A stretch of DNA of 52,095 nucleotides from Acidimicrobiaceae bacterium (GTDB taxonomy: Bacteria > Actinomycetota > Acidimicrobiia > Acidimicrobiales > Bog-793). The stretch spans positions 6,573 to 58,667 of the forward strand of contig PLIM01000087.1 in NCBI GenBank assembly GCA_003139355.1, in the 5' to 3' direction. How positions within the stretch are numbered: position 1 is the stretch's first letter; every line of letters starts with the position of its first letter. The translations under genes were made by a program, and so were the position numbers. Positions 6,981 through 28,707 of this stretch are shown here, in pieces. The notes beneath the pieces were generated by a model. That model was not told the origin of the DNA and searched no databases. It saw nothing but the letters and a program-made list of their open reading frames with translations.

Positions 6981-8670
<1,690 letters not shown>

Positions 8671-8821: not shown

Positions 8822-9097
8822 TCAGCCGCCTGCAACCGCCGGGATAATTGACAGTGTGGTGCCGGCCGGAAGGCCGGTGTCGAGTCCTTGGAGGAAGCGA
8901 ACGTCCTCGTCCGCGACGAACAGGTTCACGAAACGCCGCAACGTGCCCTGCTCGTCCAGCAGACGCGCCTTCATTCCCGGATGGTCGCGTTCGAGCATGT
9001 CTATCGCCTCGCGCACAGTCACGGCTTCGACCTCGACTTCACCTGCACCTCCGGTCAACGGCCGGAGCTGGGTCGGGACGCGAACGGTGACGCTCAT
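8822..9097 (-). CDS. MoaD/ThiS/CysO-family sulfur carrier protein
   Basis: 91 aa ubiquitin-like pattern LRRFVNLFV..EDVRF, C-terminal IIPAVAGG; ATGA overlap with the upstream gene. Confidence 0.92.
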   Translation of the reverse strand: MSVTVRVPTQLRPLTGGAGEVEVEAVTVREAIDMLERDHPGMKARLLDEQGTLRRFVNLFVADEDVRFLQGLDTGLPAGTTLSIIPAVAGG

Positions 9098-10350
9098 CGC
9101 TTCGCCGCCCTCAGGTATCCGTCACGGTCGATCAGCTCGGCGACGGCTTCGAGAGTCGGCGGAATGGTCGCCGACGGCCCGACTGCACCGGCGAGTGCCT
9201 CGACGGTTTTGAGACCGGTGCCCGTGACGTAGACGACGACACGTTCATCGGGCCGGACGATACCCGCGTCAGCCAGCTTGGCAAGCGTCGCCACGGTCAC
9301 GCCTCCCGCGGTCTCGGCGAAGATCCCTTCGGTGCGGGCCAGCAAACGGATTCCCTCGATGATCTCCTCGTCGGTGACCGCCGCGATCGCACCTCCGCTG
9401 CGGCGAACCGCGTCGAGGGCGTACCAGCCGTCCGCCGGATTGCCTATCGCAAGCGACTTCGCGATCGTCGCGGGCTTGACCGGCCGCACGTGGTCGGCTC
9501 CATCGGCGAATGCAGTCGCCACGGGCGAGCAACCCTGTGCCTGCGCGCCGGAGATCCTGACCTCGCTTTCGCCGTGGACGAGGCCGAGCTCGGAAAGCTC
9601 GCGAAACCCCTTGTCGATCTTGGTGAGCTGGCTTCCGGACGCAATTGGGACCACGACGTGGTCGGGGAGCTGCCAGCCGAGCTGCTCGGCGACCTCGAAG
9701 GCCAGCGTCTTCGAGCCTTCGGCGTAGTAGGGCCGAATGTTGACGTTGACGAAGGCCCACTCGGTGAATTCGCTTGCCAGCTCCGCGCAAAGGCGGTTCA
9801 CGTCGTCGTAGCTGCCTTCGACCGCGACGAGGTGTCCGCCGAAGACTGCGGTCGTGATGAGTTTCACGGCCTCGAGATCGTGAGGCACGAACACGAACGA
9901 TTCCATGCCGGCCCGAGCGGCGTGGGCGGCGAGCGAATTCGCGAGATTGCCGGTCGAGGCGCACGCGGCGACCTTGAACCCGAGCTCACGGGCCTTGGTG
10001 AGAGCTACTGCGACAACTCGGTCCTTGAACGAGCCTGTCGGGTTGCGGGTGTCGTCCTTCACCCAGACCTCACCGAGCCCGAGCTCGGCGGCGAGACGGT
10101 CGGCCAGGATCAGTGGCGTGAACCCGGACCCGAGGTCGACCGGCGATTCGGCCGAGACCGGAAGAAGGTCCGCGTACCGCCACATGTTGGGCGGCCCGGC
10201 CGCGATGCGTTCGCGGGTAACTGTTCTCCGCAGCGCATCGTGGTCGTACGCGACCTCGAGCGGCCCGAAACAGAACTCGCACACATGGAGCGCCTCAGCC
10301 GCGTACCTGCGTGCGCACTCCCGACAGCGAAGCCCGACGACATGACCCAC
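9094..10350 (-). CDS. threonine synthase-like PLP enzyme, probable O-phosphohomoserine sulfhydrylase
   Basis: N-terminal CxxC..CxxC Zn ribbon, [12 protein letters not shown] lysine, CASTGN, EGSKT, EGIFAETAGG; SAM riboswitch upstream, sulfur carrier downstream. Confidence 0.85.
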   Translation of the reverse strand: MGHVVGLRCRECARRYAAEALHVCEFCFGPLEVAYDHDALRRTVTRERIAAGPPNMWRYADLLPVSAESPVDLGSGFTPLILADRLAAELGLGEVWVKDDTRNPTGSFKDRVVAVALTKARELGFKVAACASTGNLANSLAAHAARAGMESFVFVPHDLEAVKLITTAVFGGHLVAVEGSYDDVNRLCAELASEFTEWAFVNVNIRPYYAEGSKTLAFEVAEQLGWQLPDHVVVPIASGSQLTKIDKGFRELSELGLVHGESEVRISGAQAQGCSPVATAFADGADHVRPVKPATIAKSLAIGNPADGWYALDAVRRSGGAIAAVTDEEIIEGIRLLARTEGIFAETAGGVTVATLAKLADAGIVRPDERVVVYVTGTGLKTVEALAGAVGPSATIPPTLEAVAELIDRDGYLRAAKR

Positions 10351-10358
10351 AGGACCCT

Positions 10359-10459
10359 CCTCATCGTTCGGGCATTGGCACCTGGCACTGCCCAGGAGGC
10401 TCGTGCTGGTTGTCGCGGCTTTCGTCGGGCCCGATCCCTCGGCCGCTCTTGATGATGGG
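10359..10459 (-). ncRNA. SAM-I (S-box) riboswitch
   Basis: Minus strand reads ATCAAGAG-cggcc-GAGGGA-tcgg-GCCCGACGAAAGCCGCGACAACC..GGTGCCAATGCC..GATGAG, the SAM-I core, ending at the RBS. Confidence 0.9.
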
Positions 10460-10570
10460 CCTCAAGTGTGGACCACAGCCCGGCGCACGTCAAAGGATGC
10501 CGACCACGTGTCGATGATCACCTACGAGCAAACCTTGTCGGTGTCACAAGCCCTAACGTGGCGTCCGACC

Positions 10571-10807
10571 ATGGCCGCCGTATCCGATGTCACTACGCCG
10601 ATTGCTTGTTATCACCACGGGGGCTTCCCGGTCGCCGAGTTGCGGGCGATGAAGAAGAACCAGCGGGTCTCGGCCTGCACCCCCGCTCGCGACGAGAACG
10701 CGATTGTCGGTGCTCGCCGCGGGGCCCTCGGGCGCATCGAGCTTGCTCCCCAAGCCCGAGACGTCCGGGACGTCGCACTGCGTCGCGCAGGAGTACGGGT
10801 CGCATGA
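10571..10807 (+). pseudogene. gpgS: internally deleted glucosyl-3-phosphoglycerate synthase remnant
   Basis: YHHGGFPVAELRAMKKNQRVSACTPARDE resembles the GpgS N-terminus and ELAPQARDVRDVALRRAGV its C-terminus; the GT-A core is missing; lies directly upstream of otsA. Confidence 0.65.
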
Positions 10808-12246
10808 CCGAGTTCGACTTCGTCGTCGTCTCGAACCGGGGACCGTTCACGCTCGAGAGCCGGCCCGGGGGAGTAGTCGAATTTCGGCCGGCGGCGGGTG
10901 GCTTGGCACCGAGCCTGAGCGGCGCGCTCGCCGAAGAGCCGATGGGCTCGGGCAGCGGAGTGCTCTGGGTCGCCTCAGCCTTCACCGAAGCAGATCGGCT
11001 CTACGCATCGGCCGGCGCCGTAGCTACCGGACAGGACACGTTGAAGCTGCGCATGGTCGCTGTCACGCCCGAGATCGGGCGAGCAGCCTACGACGTGATC
11101 GCCAATGGCACGCTGTGGTTTCTCCACCACGGGCTGTTCGACCATGCGCGCCGCCCGTGTTTCGACCGCGTCTGGCACGAGGCGTGGGAAGGGTACTGCC
11201 AGTTCAACGAGGCCATTGCGGACGCGGTCGCAGAACAAGCCGCGACCGGGGCGACTGTGGTCGTGAACGACTATCACCTGGCGCTCGTCGGCCGGTATCT
11301 CGCAAAGAGCCGGCCCGATCTCGCGACCGCGTTCTTTACCCACACCGCTTTCTGCCCCCCGGAGGACCTCGCCATGGTGCCGGACGGGCCCCGCCTCGAG
11401 CTGATGGAGTCCATGTCCTGTTTCGGTGCTTGCGGGTTCCACACCTCTCGGTGGCGTGACGCCTTCGTGCGATGTGCGTCGGCGGTCGGCGTCGAGGCGC
11501 CCGCGACCTTCGTAGCCCCCCTCGGCGCCGACCCGGCGAGGCTCGACGAGGTGGCGGCCACCGTGGCCTGCCGATCACGTCTCGAGCGCCTCGAAGCCGA
11601 GCTCGACGGCCGCACGCTGCTGCTGCGCAGCGACCGCGTCGAACTCTCGAAGAACCTGATACGCGGCTTCCTCGCCTTCGACGAGCTGCTGGAGGCGTCG
11701 CCGCAATGGCGGGGGCGTCTGATCTTCTATGCGCGGGTCTACGGGTCACGCGAGTCTCTACCGGAGTATCTCGCCTACCGGACCGAGGTGGAACACGTGG
11801 TGGCCCGGGTGAACGAGCGTTGGGGCGAGTCCGGCTACGTGCCGGTCGTGCTCGACCTCGAGGACGATTTCGAGGCGACTGTGGCCACCCTCCAGCGCTA
11901 CGACCTGCTGTTAGTCAACCCCATTCGGGACGGGCTCAACCTTGTTGCGATGGAAGGGCCGGCGGTCAACCAACGAGACGGCGTGCTCGCGCTCTCACGA
12001 GAGGCGGGTGCTTACGACGAGTTGGCGGACGTGGCAATCGGCCTCAATCCCTTCGACGTGACCGGGACGGCGGCTGCGATATCCAGCGGCCTCTCCATGA
12101 GCTTGGAGGAGCGCCGGGTTCGGGCCGCGGAGCTGCGGCGCCGGGCGCGCTCGCGCACGCCAGCGCATTGGCTGGCCGAGGTCCGCCGCGCAGCCCGGGT
12201 TCCCGGCCAGCGGGGTCCGCGCGCCTGGGGCCAGGCCGGCGACTAG
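10804..12246 (+). CDS. otsA: trehalose-6-phosphate synthase (GT20)
   Basis: MTEFDFVVVSNRGP, GGLA, LWFLHH, NDYHL, DRVELSKN, NPIRDGLNLVAMEG, LSREAGA; start set at ATG 10804. Confidence 0.9.
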   Translation: MTEFDFVVVSNRGPFTLESRPGGVVEFRPAAGGLAPSLSGALAEEPMGSGSGVLWVASAFTEADRLYASAGAVATGQDTLKLRMVAVTPEIGRAAYDVIANGTLWFLHHGLFDHARRPCFDRVWHEAWEGYCQFNEAIADAVAEQAATGATVVVNDYHLALVGRYLAKSRPDLATAFFTHTAFCPPEDLAMVPDGPRLELMESMSCFGACGFHTSRWRDAFVRCASAVGVEAPATFVAPLGADPARLDEVAATVACRSRLERLEAELDGRTLLLRSDRVELSKNLIRGFLAFDELLEASPQWRGRLIFYARVYGSRESLPEYLAYRTEVEHVVARVNERWGESGYVPVVLDLEDDFEATVATLQRYDLLLVNPIRDGLNLVAMEGPAVNQRDGVLALSREAGAYDELADVAIGLNPFDVTGTAAAISSGLSMSLEERRVRAAELRRRARSRTPAHWLAEVRRAARVPGQRGPRAWGQAGD

Positions 12247-13190
12247 GACGGGCGCAGCAGTCCGGCCAGTGCGACGAGGAAACCGACCGCGGCGCCCGGA
12301 CCGTCGAGGACGAGGTCGGCCGCCTCAACCATCCCGTGGGGCACCTCGGCGCCGGTGACCGCGACCTTCAAGGTTCGGAGACCGGATGCGGTCCGCAATC
12401 TGTCGAGCGCGTCGAACGCGAGGAGGTCGCCGGCATCGTCGCCGAGGTAAGCAGCCCTTTCCAGCCCCGCGCACAACTCGGTCACGACCGTTCCCTTGTC
12501 GATCCCGAGCGGGAGTGTGAGCTCCACGCTCGCTTTTCCCAGCCGCGGCACGAGACCGTGCTCGGCTGCGATGGTTCGCACCGCCTCTGTCGTCTGTGCC
12601 ACGACCGCCTCGAGATCGGCACCCGAGGCGCTGAGCGAGCGCCAGTGGACCGTGATCCCGTAGCCCTTGTCGTCGACCCGGACACCGCTGGGCACGGCGG
12701 CAAGGAGCTGATCACGAACGGCCTCGATCACCGGGCGCCAAGCCGAGACCCCGGCGCGGCGCTGGACCGTCCCGTCCGGGAAGCACTCTTCGAGCCCGTT
12801 GAGGCCGATGGCCCGAAGAGGCGATCGATAGCTTTCGATCTCGAGGCGATCGGTGAGGAACGCCGCGGACCGTCCCGAGATCGCGGCGACAACGGCCAGC
12901 TCCCGGGCAAGGTCGTGGAGGGCCCCAAGCGCGCCGGGCAACGGGCGGGCAGCTTGTGGATCGACGACGATCGGGGCGATCGTCCCGTCGAAGTCGCAAC
13001 AGAGCCCAGCTGTTCCGGGGGCTTCGGCGAGAAGCTCGAGAGCGGAAGACTCGGTGGCAGTCAGCCTGCGAACCTCGGCGCCGCCAGCGTTCTCAACGCG
13101 GCCGGCGTTCGAGCCAGGGACCACCTTCGTAACGGTCCCGGCGCCGGCGAACAAGCCGGCGTTGAACACGGTGGACCACGAGCGGGTCAT
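12243..13190 (-). CDS. otsB: trehalose-6-phosphate phosphatase (HAD)
   Basis: DFDGTIAPIV, ISGR, DKG..YLGDDAGDL. True start is probably near 13064, since the ORF's 5' part overlaps the DUF3263 gene. Confidence 0.88.
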   Translation of the reverse strand: MTRSWSTVFNAGLFAGAGTVTKVVPGSNAGRVENAGGAEVRRLTATESSALELLAEAPGTAGLCCDFDGTIAPIVVDPQAARPLPGALGALHDLARELAVVAAISGRSAAFLTDRLEIESYRSPLRAIGLNGLEECFPDGTVQRRAGVSAWRPVIEAVRDQLLAAVPSGVRVDDKGYGITVHWRSLSASGADLEAVVAQTTEAVRTIAAEHGLVPRLGKASVELTLPLGIDKGTVVTELCAGLERAAYLGDDAGDLLAFDALDRLRTASGLRTLKVAVTGAEVPHGMVEAADLVLDGPGAAVGFLVALAGLLRPS

Positions 13191-20747: not shown

Positions 20748-20822
20748 TGGCGCCCTCGGCAGGATTCGAACCTGCGCACCCGGCTCCGGAGGCCGATGCT
20801 CTATCCCCTGAGCTACGAGGGC
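20748..20822 (-). tRNA. tRNA-Arg(CCG)
   Basis: 75-nt cloverleaf: acceptor GCCCTCG/CGAGGGC, anticodon loop CTCCGGA, GTTCGAATC T-loop, encoded CCA; divergent from argS. Confidence 0.97.
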
Positions 20823-20875: not shown

Positions 20876-22486
20876 ATGACCACCGAACGACGCCTGGCCG
20901 ATGGGATCGTCGCGGCTCTTGCGGCCCTTCATATCCCAGTCGAGCCGCAGGAGGTCCAGCTCGTCCGCCCGGCGCGCCCGGAGCATGGTGACTGGTCGAC
21001 CAACGCTGCACTCGTCGTCGCGAAGTCCGTCGGTCGGGCGCCTCGCGACGTTGCCGCGGCTCTCGTGGCCGCGCTCCAGGACGCAGAGATCTACGAGGTA
21101 GTCGCGGTCGAGGCCGCGGGGCCCGGGTTTGTCAATTTCAAGCTTGCGACCTCGTGGTTGCACCACGCGCTCATGGACGTCGTCGCTGCAGGCGAAGAGA
21201 CCTACGCGACTCCGGAGCTCGGAGCCGGGGAGCGGGTCCAGATCGAGTTCGTATCCGCCAACCCGACTGGCCCGCTGCACGTCGGCAACGGCTGGCTCGG
21301 CTCGTACGGCGACGCTCTCGGGCGGGTGATGAGCCGGTGCGGCTGGGAAGTAGAGCGGGAGTTCTACGTGAACGATACTGGCGGCCAGATCCGCCTTCTC
21401 GGCGAGAGCCTTCTCGCCCGACGCCGCGGCGAGGTTGTGCCGGAGGAGGGCTACCAGGGCGAGTACGTCACGCAGTTGGCGCAGCAGTACGAGGGGCCCG
21501 AGGACATCGTCCAAGCCGGCCGGTTTGCCAGCGAGGCAATCCTCGAGAACATACGGGAGACCCTCGAGAGGCTCGACATTTGTTTCGACGAGTGGTACTC
21601 ACAAGCCTCGATCGAAGAGAGCGGCCAGGTTGGCGAGACGATCGAGTTGTTTCGCGAACGGGGGCTCGTGTACGAGGACGACGGGGCGATCTGGCTCCGG
21701 TCCACCGAGGTCGGCGACACCCGCGACCGTGTGCTGATCAGGTCTAACGGCGATGTCACCTACCTCGCAGGCGATCTCGCGTACCACCGCGACAAGTTCC
21801 TTGTCCGCAAGTTCGATCGGGTCATCGACGTCTTCGGCGCGGACCACCACGGCCAGGTCGCCAGCCTGAAGGCCGGCGTCACGGCGCTCGGCATCGACCG
21901 CGACAGGCTGGAGATCCGCCTCGGTCAGCTCGTCAACATCGTCGGCCGCCGGATGTCGAAGCGCTCCGGGAACTTCATCAAGCTCGACTCGGTCATCGAC
22001 GAGATCGGAGCCGACGCGACCCGGCTCCTGTCGCTCCTCAATTCGATCGACCAGGCCACGACGCTCGACCTCGAGCTCATGAAACGACGGTCGATGGAGA
22101 ATCCCGTGTTCTATGTGCAGTATGCACATGCTCGGATCGCCGCGATCGACCGCAAACGCGCCGAGCGCGGAATCGAGCGCGTGCCCATCTCGGAGGCCAA
22201 CCTGGCCCTGCTCATTCACGACCGAGAGCTCGAGTTGATGCGCTGCCTTGTCGACCTGCCCTATGTGGTCGGAGAAGCGGCCAAAGAGCGCGCACCACAC
22301 AAGGTGACCAACTGGGTTCGCCTGCTCGCCGGCGAGTTCCATGGCTTCTATCACGACTGCCGCGTTCTGTCCGACGAGGTCCCGTTCGAGCTCACTCAGG
22401 CTCGGTTGTGGCTGGTCGAAGGAGTCCGGATCGGTCTCGCGATCGCGCTCAGCCTCCTCGGGGTCCGGGCACCGGACGCGATGTGA
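20876..22486 (+). CDS. argS: arginine--tRNA ligase
   Basis: IEFVSANPTGPLHVGN, FGADHHG, RMSKRSG, NPVFYVQYAHARI. Confidence 0.96.
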   Translation: MTTERRLADGIVAALAALHIPVEPQEVQLVRPARPEHGDWSTNAALVVAKSVGRAPRDVAAALVAALQDAEIYEVVAVEAAGPGFVNFKLATSWLHHALMDVVAAGEETYATPELGAGERVQIEFVSANPTGPLHVGNGWLGSYGDALGRVMSRCGWEVEREFYVNDTGGQIRLLGESLLARRRGEVVPEEGYQGEYVTQLAQQYEGPEDIVQAGRFASEAILENIRETLERLDICFDEWYSQASIEESGQVGETIELFRERGLVYEDDGAIWLRSTEVGDTRDRVLIRSNGDVTYLAGDLAYHRDKFLVRKFDRVIDVFGADHHGQVASLKAGVTALGIDRDRLEIRLGQLVNIVGRRMSKRSGNFIKLDSVIDEIGADATRLLSLLNSIDQATTLDLELMKRRSMENPVFYVQYAHARIAAIDRKRAERGIERVPISEANLALLIHDRELELMRCLVDLPYVVGEAAKERAPHKVTNWVRLLAGEFHGFYHDCRVLSDEVPFELTQARLWLVEGVRIGLAIALSLLGVRAPDAM

Positions 22487-23847
22487 CCAGCCCCCAAGCT
22501 CCATCTGGGGCGCCTAGGCCCAAGTTGCCGCCGCCCGAGTCGTCGTCGCCGCCCGAGGGCCCGATCCATCGGGCCCTGCTTCCCGACACGTCGGCCATTA
22601 CTGCTGACGGTCACCTGAGCGTAGGCGGGGTCGACCTTCTACTGCTCGCGGAGGACGTAGGCACACCGGTGTTCGTCTACGACGAGGACCACATGCGCAA
22701 TCGGTGCCGCGAGGCTGCCCAGGGCTTCGAGGCCGGCGTTGCCTACGCGACGAAGGCTTTCTTGTGCAAAGCGATGGCGACGCTGGCCCTCGAGGAGAAG
22801 ATGGCGCTCGATGTCTCCACCGGTGGGGAACTGGCGGTCGCGCTCGCGGGAGGAGCGACGGGTGAGCGCCTCGTGTGCCACGGCAACAACAAGTCCTCCG
22901 AGGAGCTCGCGGCGGCGCTCAGCGTCGGCGTCGGCCGGATCGTCATCGACTCGTTCGATGAGATCGGCCGGCTGCGCGCTCTGAGCACCGCGGGCGTGGC
23001 ATCCGGCTCGGCGAGTCATCGGCCTCGCCTGTTGGTCCGCGTGACGCCCGGTATTGAGGCGCACACCCACGAGTACGTGAAGACTGGGCAGGAAGACACG
23101 AAATTCGGTTTCTCACTGGCTTCGGGAGCGGCGGCCGAAGCGGTCGACGCGCTCAGGCATCTGGCGGACTTCGAGCTTGTCGGGGTTCACGCGCACATCG
23201 GCAGCCAGATCTTCGAGGTCTCCGCTTTCGCCGAGGAGATCGCCGCTCTCGCCCCGTTCGTGGTCGAGAACCGGTTTACGGAATGCTGCATCGGCGGCGG
23301 CCTCGGCGTTGCATACGTCGAAGGGGAGGTGGCACCTTCCATCACCGAGTGGGCGCGGGCCGTGCACTCGGCAGCGAGGACAGTGGGCCTCCCCTTGACG
23401 GTGCGCGTCACCGCCGAGCCGGGTCGCGCCGTGGTTGCGAGCGCGGCTGTGACGCTGTACCGGGTCGGCACCATCAAGCGGCTCCCAGGCTTGCGCACTT
23501 ACATCGCGGTCGACGGCGGCATGTCCGACAATCCGCGGCCGGTGCTCTACGGCAGTGGTTACGAGGCCTTCCTGCCCCGCGCACCGCTGGCACCTCGGCC
23601 ACTTGCCGCTCGGCTGGTGGGCAAGCATTGCGAGTCCGGTGACGTCATAGTCGATGACGCACGGCTTCCTTGCGACCTCGCTGTCGGTGATGTGCTGGCC
23701 ACCCCGGTCACCGGCGCGTACGGATTCGCCATGTCTTCGAACTACAACCGGGTGCTGCGTCCCCCCGTCGTGTTCGTCTCAGGGGGCCGATCGCGGGTCG
23801 TCGTCCGGCGCGAGACCGTAGCCGACCTGCTCGCCCGCGAAACCTGA
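22483..23847 (+). CDS. lysA: diaminopimelate decarboxylase
   Basis: YATKAF, HGNNKS, HIGSQIF, EPGR, GKHCESGD, TGAYG; GTGA overlap with argS. Confidence 0.95.
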   Translation: MTSPQAPSGAPRPKLPPPESSSPPEGPIHRALLPDTSAITADGHLSVGGVDLLLLAEDVGTPVFVYDEDHMRNRCREAAQGFEAGVAYATKAFLCKAMATLALEEKMALDVSTGGELAVALAGGATGERLVCHGNNKSSEELAAALSVGVGRIVIDSFDEIGRLRALSTAGVASGSASHRPRLLVRVTPGIEAHTHEYVKTGQEDTKFGFSLASGAAAEAVDALRHLADFELVGVHAHIGSQIFEVSAFAEEIAALAPFVVENRFTECCIGGGLGVAYVEGEVAPSITEWARAVHSAARTVGLPLTVRVTAEPGRAVVASAAVTLYRVGTIKRLPGLRTYIAVDGGMSDNPRPVLYGSGYEAFLPRAPLAPRPLAARLVGKHCESGDVIVDDARLPCDLAVGDVLATPVTGAYGFAMSSNYNRVLRPPVVFVSGGRSRVVVRRETVADLLARET

Positions 23848-23873
23848 CTCCGCTCGTCTTGTAACTTGTGCCG

Positions 23874-25211
23874 GTGGGCGAGCCTCGATCGAGCGAAACA
23901 CCCGGCACCGATGTGGTGCGCGTCGGCCTTCTTGGCTACGGCAACGTCGGCGTTGCCTTCACCCGGCTCATCGACTCGCAAACTGAGGCGATCGCGCTCC
24001 GTACCGGCCTCGAGCTGCGAGTCACGCGCATTGCTGTCAGGGACACCGCGAAACAAAGGCCCGGTTCTGCACTTTCCGACGCCGGCGAGCGACTCTCCAG
24101 CGACGCCGCCTCGCTTGTGAACGACCCGTCGATCGACGTCGTCGTCGAGCTCGTCGGCGGAATCGAGCCGGCGCGCACCTTGGTGCTCACGGCTCTCGCG
24201 GCAGGCAAGCCTGTCGTCACGGCCAACAAGGAGCTCCTCGCGTCCTTTGGGGCCGAGCTTCTTCAAGCAGCCGAGAACGGGGGAGTCGACCTGTTCTACG
24301 AGGCCTCCGTAGCGGGCGCGATCCCGCTCGTCCGGCTCCTCAACGACTCGCTCGCGGGAGAGCGGATCGTCCGCGTGATGGGAATCGTGAACGGCACGAC
24401 GAACTACGTGCTCACCTCCATGAGCGAGGAGGGCTGCGATTACGGCCGGGCACTCGCGGAGGCGCAGGCTCTCGGTTACGCGGAGGCCGACCCTACCGCG
24501 GACGTCGAAGGCTTCGACGCCCGAGCCAAGGCTGCCATCCTCGCCGGCATCGCGTTCGACGCGGACGTTGTCGCGAGCGACGTCTACACCGAGGGGATCA
24601 CGGCCATCGGCGCTTCCGACATAGCTTTTGCCCACAAGCTCGGCTACGAGGTCAAGCTGCTGGCCGTCGCTGAGCGCGTGAGCGACGGTCCCACGCCCGC
24701 CGTCGCTGTACGCGTCCATCCTGCCATGGTCCCCCGGGAGCACCCTCTTGCGAGCGTTCGCGGAGCGTTCAACGCGGTTTTCGTCGAAGGCGATACCGCC
24801 GGCGAGCTCATGGTCTACGGCCGCGGTGCCGGCGGGATGGCGACGGCGAGTGCCGTGCTCGGTGATGTGGTGGAGGCAGCGCACCATCGCCGCGAGGAGA
24901 TGAGGGGCCGGGCCGTCCGCCGCGAGCAAATCGAGATCCGGCCGATCTCCGCGCTTCGAACCCAGTACTACCTCACTATGGATGTGAAGGATCAGCCCGG
25001 CGTGCTGGCGTCGGTGGCCCACGTGTTCGGTGAGCACCATGTCTCGATCCGCTCCATGGAACAGATCGACATCGGTGACGGGGCTCGCCTGGTGTTCATC
25101 ACGCACACCGCCCGTGAAGCCGACGTTCAGGCGACCCTCGCCTCGCTCGCGGAGTTGGATGTCGTCGCTCGCATCGGCGTGGTGCTGAGGGTCATCGGGC
25201 CGGAACGTTGA
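23874..25211 (+). CDS. hom: homoserine dehydrogenase with ACT domain
   Basis: [44 protein letters not shown]-terminal ACT; GTG 6 nt after TAACTT (alternative start 23868). Confidence 0.95.
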
Positions 25212-25221
25212 TCGGGACCCA

Positions 25222-26262
25222 GTGAGCTCCTGGCGCGGTGTGATCGAGGAGTATCGAGACTTCCTCCCTGTCTCCGAGGCGACACCGGTGGTGACGCTGT
25301 TGGAGGGCGCGACGCCCTTGCTTGCGGCCCCGCGGCTGTCAGAGCGGGTCGGTGCCGATGTTCTCCTCAAGCTCGAGGGAGCCAACCCGACCGGTTCGTT
25401 CAAGGACCGGGGCATGACGGTGGCGATCTCCAAGGCTGCCGAGGAGGGCGTCAAGGCGGTCGTTTGCGCCTCGACCGGCAACACCTCCGCCTCCGCGGCG
25501 GCCTACGCGGCCCGAGCGGGGATGAGTTGCGCGGTGCTCATACCGGAGGGTCATATCGCCCTAGGCAAGCTCGCGCAGGCCCTTGTGCACGGGGCGCGCG
25601 TCCTGCAGGTACGGGGCAACTTCGACGTTGCCCTCGAGATCGTGCGAGAGCTGCCGCGCCGTGCACCGGTAGTGGTCGTGAATTCGGTGAACCCGTTTCG
25701 CATCGAGGGGCAGAAGACCGGCGCCTTTGAGATCGTGGACCGCCTCGGGGATGCTCCCGAGGTCCACTGCATCCCGGTGGGCAACGCCGGGAACATCACG
25801 GCCTATTGGCGTGGATATTGCGAGTACCGCAACGCCGGGCGCTCCACACGGCTGCCGAGAATGTTCGGGTTCCAGGCCGCCGGCGCGGCGCCGATCGTCG
25901 TCGGTCATCCGATTGCCGAGCCCGAGACCGTCGCCACGGCCATCCGGATCGGCAACCCGGCTTCGTGGTACGGAGCGACAGCGGCAGCGTCGGAGTCCGG
26001 CGGAGGGATCTACGCGGTGACCGACGAGGAGATCCTGGAGGCCTACCGGTTCCTCGCCACCGAGGAGTCGGTCTTCTGCGAGGCAGCCTCGGCGGCGTCT
26101 GTCGCGGGCCTGCTGAGAACTCCTGTGCCGAAAGGCACGACCGTCGTGTGCGTGCTGACCGGCCACGGGCTGAAGGACCCGGATCTGGCGATCAGCCAAG
26201 TGTCGGTGCCTCCGGTGGTCGACGCCGACCTCTCCTCGGTGCTCGGCGCACTCGGGCTCTGA
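25222..26262 (+). CDS. thrC: threonine synthase
   Basis: [47 protein letters not shown]; canonical position after hom. Confidence 0.96.
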
Positions 26263-26712
26263 CTGCGCCACGCGGTCGGTTCCACGGGAACGGTGCTTGC
26301 TGGGAGCTCAATACTCCGCTAGCATGCAGTTGCCCTCGTTCGTCATTGCGGATGCCAGCTCGCCCCTTGGGCGGGCGACCCGAATGGGGCGGCGGGAATC
26401 GCAGAGGTCCTTTCCCGGTTGTTGCTTACACCGGCGCTTCCCCCGTGCAGACGCCTTAGCCGCCGTGGGCACCCACTGATTGGGCTGTGCGATCCGGCGA
26501 AGTCGACGACTCGTTCTGCTCGGAAACTCCCAGCATCGGATCGCAGGCTCGGGTCGATTGCGTGACCCGACTTGGTCTTGGTTCGGGTGACCGCCCGGGA
26601 GGGTAGGTCGTGGGGGCATCGGGGGACCAACGACATCGCGGAATTCCGGAAGGTCCGGGAACAACCTCCAAAGAACCACCTTGAGTAACAGGATTATCCA
26701 GAGAGGAAGTTG

Positions 26713-28707
26713 ATGAGCGAAGAACAGCTCGAGCGTTCGATCCTTGAGCGCAAAGCGAGCGACGAGCTTCGGGCAATCGCGACCGCCATGTCCCTCGAGC
26801 CCGTGGCTCGTACGCGCAAGGCGGATCTCGTGAACCAGATCCTGCGGGCCGCCGGCGTCGAGGTCGAGGGCACCGCACCGTCGCACGCGAGTAGCACGGC
26901 ATCGCCGCAATCACCGCCTTCCAACGGTGGCGCCGCCGACTCGCGCCAGGCAGCCGCGGCAGACGGCGCATCCGCGTCGAAGTCGGCGCGAGGTCGCACC
27001 TCCAGAGCCCGGTCCACAGTCAAGGCGGGTTCGGCGGACTCGCTGCCGGCCCACGCCGAAGTGAACGCCAACGGCGGCGGGCCAGCTCAAGAACTGGGCG
27101 AGGGCCGTGACGGCTCGTTGGCGGCGGGCTCGGCGCTCGGCAACGGGAAGGACTCCGCAGCCTCGACGGACTCCGCGGACGCGGTCGCAGAAGGCGCAGC
27201 CGCCATCCTGGCGGGCTCCCACTTCGACCGAGGCAGTCGGGAGCCAGCCCCGGCGACCGGTGCAAGCTCTGCTTACAGCGAGCTGCGGTCCGGTGAGCTC
27301 GCGTCGAATGTGGCCGGCGGTGCCGCTGGCGGTGCTGAGACGCTTGATCGGATGGCCGGGGATGTGCCGACCACGCTTCGCCCTCAGCGTCAGCCCCAGC
27401 AGCACTCGCAGCCAGGTCGAGGCAATCAGGGTGGCCAGAATGGCCAGGGCAGCCAGGTCGAGGCAGGCAACCGCCGCGGGCGCCGTCGTCGCGGACGTGA
27501 CCGCGAGCGCGGCGGTCAGGAGCCGCAGGGTGGCGGCCAGGAAGTGGCATGGCAGGGCGAGCTCGTGCCGGTCCGTGGCCTGCTCGATCTAAGGGACGAG
27601 GGCTACGGTTTCCTTCGTACGAGCGGCTACCTGCCGAGTGTCAAGGACGTGTACATCTCGGTCTCGCAGGCCAGGCGGTTCGCGCTGCGCCGTGGCGACG
27701 CCATCGAGGGTGCATGCCGTCCGGCGGGACCGAGCGAGAAATACCCGGCCTTGTTGCGTATCGACACGGTTTGCGGGATGAAGCCGGAGGACGCCCGTGA
27801 GAGGCCGCGCTTCGAGGACCTGACTCCGCTGTTTCCCGACCAGCGGATGCGGCTCGAGCTGAAGGACGATCCGCTCAACACGACCGCACGGATAGTCGAC
27901 CTGATCTCGCCCATCGGCAAGGGACAGAGAAGCATGATCGTTTCGCCACCGAAGGCGGGCAAGACGACGATCCTCAAGCAGATAGCCCATTCGATAGAGC
28001 AGAACGATCCGAGCGTCCATCTCATGGTCCTGCTCGTGGACGAGCGTCCCGAGGAGGCCACGGACTGGCGCCGCTCAGTGAAAGGCGAGGTGATCGCCTC
28101 GACCTTCGACCGTCCCGCCGACGAGCACACGACCGTTGCGGAGCTCGCGATCGAGCGGGCCAAGCGGCTTGTCGAGCTCGGCAGGGACGTCGTGATCATC
28201 CTGGACGGGATCACCCGACTCGCCCGGGCCTACAACCTGGCCCAGCCGGCAACCGGTCGCATCATGTCCGGTGGCGTGGACTCCGGCGCTTTGTACCCAC
28301 CCAAGAAGTTCTTCGGAGCCGCTCGGAACATCGAGGAGGGGGGCTCGCTCACGATCCTCGCGACCGCCCTCGTGGAAACGGGCTCGAAGATGGATGAAGT
28401 GATCTTCGAGGAGTTCAAGGGCACCGGCAACATGGAGCTGCGCCTCGACCGCAAGCTGGCCGAGCGGCGGATCTACCCGGCGATCGACGTCAACGCCAGC
28501 TCGACACGCCACGAGGAGCTGCTCTTCGATCGCTCCCAGCTCCAGCAGGTCTGGAAGCTCCGCCGGGTGCTCAACGGCCTTGGCAGCGATGGAGGCGGCG
28601 GTGCTGCCGGGGCCGGTCTCGAGCTCCTCATGGACAAGATCCGCACCACACGTTCCAACGACGAGTTCCTCGCCGAGATCGCCAAGGCGGCGATCCCGGG
28701 CGGCTGA
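26713..28707 (+). CDS. rho: transcription termination factor Rho with N-terminal insertion
   Basis: [42 protein letters not shown]. Confidence 0.97.

Follow-up and report, generated by a model that had tools for sequence, protein, structure and literature searches.

The window analysed here, a stretch of 52,095 nucleotides from a metagenome-assembled genome (MAG) of an Acidimicrobiaceae bacterium (contig PLIM01000087.1, C153 in our numbering), carries on its reverse strand a short operon consisting of an S-adenosylmethionine (SAM) riboswitch, a gene for an enzyme of the threonine synthase (ThrC) family and a gene for a small sulfur carrier. Judging from its sequence, we consider this operon to be very probably (roughly 0.87) the Acidimicrobiales orthologue of the MetM/MetO route to homocysteine. 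The enzyme would then be a carrier-dependent homocysteine synthase, as a sequence-only reading of the same DNA had proposed, and our analysis supports that proposal. The host MAG (197 contigs, 2.9 Mb, 0.57% contamination) is 85% complete, and the absences reported for it below are to be read against that figure.

The riboswitch (10358–10458, reverse strand) matched the Rfam SAM-I model RF00162 over model positions 1–108 with 52.3 bits (gathering score 44.4, E 2.9e-9). The metM-like gene that follows it (9094–10350, reverse strand, GTG start codon at 10350) encodes a 418-residue zinc-ribbon, fold-type II pyridoxal phosphate (PLP) enzyme. Pfam recognises a PALP domain in it (E 6.6e-76), and its N-terminus carries a CxxC-11-CxxC zinc-ribbon motif (C9, C12, C24 and C27), which Pfam reports as NinF and whose four cysteines were invariant in 14 of 14 diverse aligned homologues. 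The PLP lysine, K109, lies within an SFKDR motif conserved in both the MetM-like and the canonical ThrC clades. Named closest homologues, among the 120 listed and the best 80 loci, came from Acidimicrobiales and Acidimicrobiaceae MAGs, and a plasmid collection held one relative more than 50% identical to the enzyme (56%, Nonomuraea gerenzanensis). The nearest solved structures were threonine synthases, such as 2zsj (E 8.8e-62), and the PDB matches included no MetM structure.

The metO-like gene (8822–9097, reverse strand) encodes a 91-residue protein of the ThiS/MoaD/CysO type (ThiS family, E 2.3e-12) that ends in PAVAGG. The carrier ATG sits on the TGA of the enzyme gene in an ATGA overlap at 9094–9097, which indicates that the carrier is translationally coupled to the enzyme. 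Among solved structures the carrier was closest to 4n6e_B (E 7.2e-23), which we take to be part of the BexX/CysO complex, and it matched Mycobacterium tuberculosis CysO (3dwg_C, E 1.1e-19) over its whole length. A tblastn search of the host assembly found no second CysO-type carrier. The canonical thrC gene lies outside the operon at 25222–26262 on the forward strand (346 residues; TIGR00260, 312.1 bits). The sequence-only reading had named the riboswitch ahead of the enzyme, the zinc-ribbon paralogue, the coupled carrier ending in GG and the separate thrC at 25222, and all four are borne out.

The MetM-like enzyme and the ThrC of the same window share only 37% identity and fall into separate groups. 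The earlier reading had suggested a phylogeny including true ThrC; in an IQ-TREE analysis of 46 rows, the 22 MetM-like rows defined by gene context lay behind a branch with support of 100/97, apart from the 10 canonical ThrC rows (100/100). A quick tree of 70 rows gave the same separation, with support of 99 and 100. Further zinc-ribbon ThrC-like paralogues fell outside both groups. The host genome also encodes, on contig C98 (4577–5986; L121:678–2087, forward strand), an unassigned PLP enzyme, a PALP-domain protein of 469 residues that aligns with the MetM-like enzyme over some 350 residues at approximately 30% identity and had no NCBIfam match at E up to 1e-30.

The residues specific to the clade are concentrated in one loop, where S155, N157, R160 and N188 of ThrC become N204, R206, Y209 and S238 in MetM. 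The four ThrC residues would be those that bind the substrate phosphate, as in the Thermus enzyme. T88 and S89 of ThrC are likewise replaced, by L136 and A137. The loop residues provide a simple signature for telling MetM from ThrC. The MetM-like enzyme shares with canonical ThrC (TIGR00260; PDB 2zsj, 1uim) the fold, the SFKDR motif and, probably, the substrate O-phosphohomoserine, but differs from it in an extra zinc-ribbon N-terminus of about 50 residues, in its own clade and in the remodelled loop. Canonical ThrC was present alongside the MetM-like enzyme in all ten clade-bearing genomes checked by a TIGR00260 search, and these ThrC proteins were 60–84% identical to that of the window.

The context of the operon is conserved. 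A profile search of genome contigs, based on an alignment of five sequences, gave a best 80 related loci that are 56–92% identical to the enzyme and come from Actinomycetota (40), Cyanobacteriota (29), Chloroflexota (9), Nitrospirota (1) and Aquificota (1); Streptomyces was not among these best 80. In 64 of them the enzyme gene is followed, on its own strand, by an open reading frame for a MetO-like carrier. The carrier gene of the cyanobacterial loci and of three Chloroflexota loci (L046, L078 and L091) begins 120–350 nucleotides past the enzyme gene and does not overlap it. On one contig of a Thermodesulfovibrio MAG (G007:C128; L061/L108/L115) the MetM-like gene, the carrier gene and canonical thrC adjoin.

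A same-strand RF00162 match immediately precedes the enzyme gene in 43 of the 80 loci: 39 of 40 in Actinomycetota, four of nine in Chloroflexota, and none in Cyanobacteriota (0/29), Nitrospirota (0/1) or Aquificota (0/1). The one Actinomycetota locus without a match, L012, is also the closest relative, and its leader is visibly the same RNA with a score under the threshold. The absence from cyanobacteria agrees with what PMC12172450 says of Microcystis. Near two Chloroflexota MetM loci Rfam reported other elements, PYLIS_3 (42.6 bits, L087:4716–4815) and a T-box leader (104.3 bits, L080:4205–4631).

A link to methionine synthesis comes from the distribution of the enzyme in relation to MetX. 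We cross-tabulated the two across 60 genomes of Acidimicrobiia that are 90% complete or more, leaving out the host genome (G000). MetM was counted at 60% identity or more, by which matches of 39–42% in three genomes (G028, G037 and G061) were not counted, and MetX was called with NF001209 at E up to 1e-60. Both enzymes were found in 5 genomes, MetM without MetX in 15, MetX without MetM in 28 and neither in 12. Within the window's own order, MetX was found in neither of the two MetM bearers and MetM in none of the 12 MetX bearers. We attach no statistic to these counts because relatives are not independent. This complementarity is the pattern expected of alternative routes to homocysteine, and from the genomic side it independently supports the function described in print.

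The remaining steps of the route have candidates in the host genome. The only ThrB-like gene found, on C108, encodes a GHMP kinase. Contig C109 (L010:1405–2667, reverse strand) encodes a rhodanese–ThiF E1 enzyme, with the rhodanese domain at residues 51–135 and ThiF at 154–389, which scored 569.6 against NF006444 (cut-off 449); no other strong E1 of the ThiF family was found in the assembly. The E1 gene overlaps an upstream open reading frame of 241 codons that had no Pfam match. The Mec-type JAMM peptidase that the sequence-only reading had suggested looking for was found on C173 (575–1036, reverse strand; 153 residues, Prok-JAB 83 bits, HSHTH...S..D motif), beside smpB. A probable transfer-messenger RNA region lies with smpB on one side of this gene; on the other, downstream, the contig ends in a short fragment (C173:1–575, L009) that by eye resembles the N-terminal part of an IS607-type transposase or serine recombinase. 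MetH was present (1283 bits) and MetE was not found in the assembly. The search for metX and metY, likewise suggested, found both, adjacent on C73 and above their cut-offs, and MetM/MetO is therefore an additional, second route in this host. CysK is encoded on C73 as well, a cystathionine β-synthase (CBS) and a cystathionine γ-synthase/lyase (CGS) are encoded on C88, and CysM was not found in the assembly.

A system of this kind is known from Streptomyces albulus. Hasebe, Adachi, Maruyama and Hamano reportedly described it in 2024 (Applied and Environmental Microbiology 90:e0124724) as MetM, MetO, Mec and MoeZ making homocysteine from O-phospho-L-homoserine. In GapMind 2026 (PMC13759103), the Streptomyces MetO, Mec, MoeZ and MetM are listed with experimental evidence, citing Hasebe et al. 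2024; there MetO is the sulfur carrier, MoeZ the [MetO]-sulfur ligase and Mec the [MetO]-L-cysteine hydrolase, and MetM is said to be frequently misannotated as threonine synthase. PMC12172450 places a SAM riboswitch upstream of S. albulus metM, states that MetM prevents methionine auxotrophy in that organism, and describes metM homologues as spread among cyanobacteria; for the Microcystis aeruginosa PCC7806 pair it gives identities to the S. albulus proteins of 51.6% (MetM) and 47.25% (MetO). The Streptomyces route via O-phosphohomoserine, which the sequence-only reading had brought up, is thereby confirmed as published. The MetM-like and MetO-like proteins of the window are, for their part, 58.9% and 49.5% identical to a Microcystis novacekii pair (L067). 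Separately, bioRxiv 10.64898/2026.09.15.751699 gives 33% identity between Bacillus subtilis ThrC and MetM.

The window system has much in common with that of S. albulus: a ThrC-family PLP enzyme, an adjacent carrier ending in GG and an upstream SAM riboswitch in the operon itself, and, elsewhere in the genome, a JAMM peptidase, a ThiF-type E1 and a separate canonical ThrC. The mislabelling as threonine synthase is shared as well. It differs in that the host belongs to the Acidimicrobiia and not to the Actinomycetes, that the riboswitch is without P4 and runs from P1 directly into the Shine-Dalgarno sequence, and that the rhodanese domain precedes ThiF in the E1, which scores under the cut-off of the MoeZ model. 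The window carrier also terminates exactly at GG, and therefore no C-terminal trimming would be needed. The CysM/CysO/Mec/MoeZ system of M. tuberculosis (PDB 3dwg), in which O-phosphoserine and the CysO thiocarboxylate yield cysteine, follows the same logic of a phospho-amino acid, a protein thiocarboxylate, a PLP enzyme and release by a JAMM peptidase. Unlike CysM, the window enzyme belongs to the zinc-ribbon ThrC family and not to the CysK/CysM family, and its predicted reaction is a γ-replacement on O-phosphohomoserine.

From these parallels we infer the substrate, product and sulfur donor of the window system, and the following scheme may be drawn up. Homoserine kinase would supply O-phospho-L-homoserine, and the rhodanese–ThiF E1 would adenylate and thiocarboxylate MetO at its C-terminal Gly-Gly. 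MetM would then eliminate phosphate from O-phosphohomoserine and add the carrier thiocarboxylate at Cγ. The resulting homocysteine–carrier adduct would be resolved as in CysM/CysO, with the JAMM peptidase freeing homocysteine, which MetH would methylate to methionine.

Several observations weigh against this assignment. Orthology to S. albulus MetM (UniProt A0A059WBP2) is drawn indirectly, through reported identities, clade and context. The metM-like protein scored above the cut-offs of NCBIfam threonine synthase models (NF006050, 329.6 against 303; TIGR00260, 295.7 against 167.1). Sixteen of the 80 related loci have no adjacent carrier; at least two of these (L045 and L073) extend no further than the enzyme gene, and seven are from Actinomycetes (L057, L065, L077, L084, L085, L086 and L088). 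L057 keeps only about 260 nucleotides downstream; in the other six, the carrier, if one is used, must be encoded elsewhere. In the host, the ThrB-like kinase scored 157.8 bits against TIGR00191, just under its cut-off of 168.25, and the E1, with its N-terminal rhodanese domain, reached 371 against the MoeZ model NF005902 (cut-off 647); MoeZ has its domains in the reverse order, ThiF first. A JAMM peptidase accompanies MetM in all 20 genomes that carry the latter, but 27 of the 40 genomes without MetM have one as well; because 47 of the 60 genomes have one, with or without MetM, it is uninformative, and we rejected its co-occurrence as a marker of the pathway. With MetX and MetY present, the host also has no pathway gap that requires MetM. 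Finally, PMC12172450 reports that the Microcystis clade member acted mainly as a threonine deaminase under the conditions used, with weak threonine formation, and was not fully MetM-like in vivo. Membership of the clade is therefore no guarantee of activity.

The likeliest of the other explanations, though we consider it very improbable, is that the enzyme is a carrier-dependent cysteine synthase, using O-phosphoserine and the carrier thiocarboxylate to do the job of CysM/CysO on another PLP scaffold, with SAM control being general regulation of sulfur amino acids. The CysO-type nearest solved relatives of the carrier and the failure to find CysM in the assembly speak for this, as does the inclusion in the ThrC family of a cysteate synthase that uses O-phosphoserine, whose model (TIGR03844) matched the metM-like protein weakly (85.9 bits). 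CysK and the CBS–CGS pair, however, are already there for cysteine, and the complementarity in Acidimicrobiia is with a methionine enzyme, 15 of the 20 MetM bearers having no MetX that we could find. The activity published for the family, moreover, is the synthesis of homocysteine.

Slightly less probable still is a second, SAM-repressed threonine synthase isozyme beside a functionally unrelated carrier. The equivalog scores above cut-off and the best solved relatives, all threonine synthases, would fit such an isozyme, and so would the weak threonine formation and the threonine deaminase activity of the cyanobacterial clade member as given in PMC12172450. Against this, a canonical ThrC is already present in the host and in all ten clade-bearing genomes checked, the four ThrC loop residues are replaced throughout the clade, and the enzyme gene shares a start/stop overlap with a carrier ending in GG that adjoins it in 64 of 80 loci. 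Nor is there an obvious logic by which high SAM should shut down threonine synthesis. Least probable of all is that the pair serves not primary methionine synthesis but the sulfur supply of a different thio-metabolite, in the way that CysO serves the 2-thiosugar enzyme BexX. The carrier's nearest solved structure (4n6e_B) and the presence of MetX and MetY in the genome would suit this, but the neighbours are groEL and trehalose-phosphate synthase and phosphatase genes with no biosynthetic cluster nearby, and the SAM riboswitch and the wide, housekeeping-like distribution across phyla point to primary metabolism.

Returning to the MetM/MetO assignment, the riboswitch has features of its own. 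It retains P1, P2, P3 and the strand of the J3/4 pseudoknot, and the P4 hairpin is deleted in the RF00162 alignment, which leaves the SAM-I four-way junction (P1–P4, with the P2 kink-turn and the pseudoknot) one helix short although the score exceeds the gathering threshold. The element would work like the SAM-I core and is, strictly, a P4-less variant. No second RF00162 match was found elsewhere in the 2.9-Mb assembly, with 150 of 227 first-look candidates scored. The expression platform (10355–10365, reverse strand) is compact: the 3′ strand of P1, GAUGAGGA (10365–10358), merges into the Shine-Dalgarno sequence GGAGGG (10360–10355), which by our reading of the sequence ends 4 nucleotides before the GTG at 10350. 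We found no terminator-like site for an intrinsic terminator at the leader.

This architecture recurs in relatives. In an alignment of 17 Acidimicrobiia-type leaders, P4 was absent from all 17, P1 (UCAUC/GAUGA) was invariant, and P2 and P3 contained pairs altered on both sides. GGAGG directly abuts GAUGA as a conserved feature, with the start codon within roughly 20 nucleotides. The Actinomycetes loci retain P4 and have longer expression platforms. The arrangement suggests translational OFF control: at high SAM the P4-less SAM-I aptamer would close P1, and since the 3′ strand of P1 continues into the Shine-Dalgarno sequence, the SAM-stabilised helix would occlude the first bases of that sequence and turn off the translation of metM together with that of the coupled metO.

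The window aptamer has its core of P1, P2 and P3 and the J3/4 strand in common with SAM-I (RF00162) and with P4-less clan members such as SAM-IV, and in Rfam clan competition SAM-I remained the best model. There is no room in the window leader for the P5 and PK-2 elements of SAM-IV because the start codon lies within 8 nucleotides after P1. The P3 loop of the window contains CCUCC, and we considered whether it could form a pseudoknot resembling SAM-IV PK-2 by pairing with the Shine-Dalgarno sequence; this was rejected as not conserved, because many related leaders (for example L019, L022, L024 and L026) have short P3 loops without CCUCC. The SAM clan is known to include RNAs without P4, SAM-IV being described as such in PMC6890682, and our literature search for P4-less SAM-I variants turned up nothing beyond this electron cryo-microscopy work on SAM-IV. 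A search of the metY–metX, CBS–CGS, thrB and E1 loci of the host (E up to 0.1) found no Rfam element, which leaves MetM/MetO as the one methionine route in this genome for which riboswitch control was found.

These features can be combined into a broader, and rather doubtful, proposal. MetM/MetO might be the main homocysteine route in Acidimicrobiia, where no MetX was found in 15 of the 20 sampled bearers, with the host unusual in keeping both routes under a division of labour: MetX/MetY without known RNA control, and MetM/MetO gated by a minimal P4-less SAM-I switch that occludes the ribosome-binding site, and an E1 whose rhodanese domain is N-terminal, in place of a MoeZ orthologue, loading the carrier. 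If true, this would widen the published pathway, adding another sulfur-loading enzyme and another mode of regulation. The MetM/MetO route itself is already in print, and the local features (the P4-less riboswitch embedded in the Shine-Dalgarno sequence, the rhodanese-first E1 and the coexistence with MetX/MetY) are minor and leave the picture from Hasebe et al. 2024 and GapMind 2026 unchanged.

The main value of the window lies in annotation. As the sequence-only reading had anticipated of automated pipelines, every named homologue among the 120 listed is labelled threonine synthase, as the NCBIfam equivalogs also call the enzyme. Methionine prototrophy is therefore likely to be under-predicted in many MetM/MetO genomes without MetX, which would touch genomes of Acidimicrobiia, other Actinomycetota, Chloroflexota and Cyanobacteriota.

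The surroundings of the two ThrC-family genes are distinct. Canonical thrC stands in the order argS–lysA–hom–thrC–rho, with hom at 23868–25211. In this part of the window (20876–28707) there is no thrB between the end of thrC (26262) and the start of rho (26710), and argS (20876–22486) has a tRNA-Arg (CCG) gene at 20748–20822 on the reverse strand as its divergent neighbour. The metM/metO operon is followed on the same strand by groEL (6981–8630, reverse strand), about 190 nucleotides past the carrier gene. Upstream of the riboswitch, 10468–13190 holds a trehalose-6-phosphate synthase gene (GT20, forward strand) and a trehalose-phosphatase gene (reverse strand), the former transcribed divergently from the operon.

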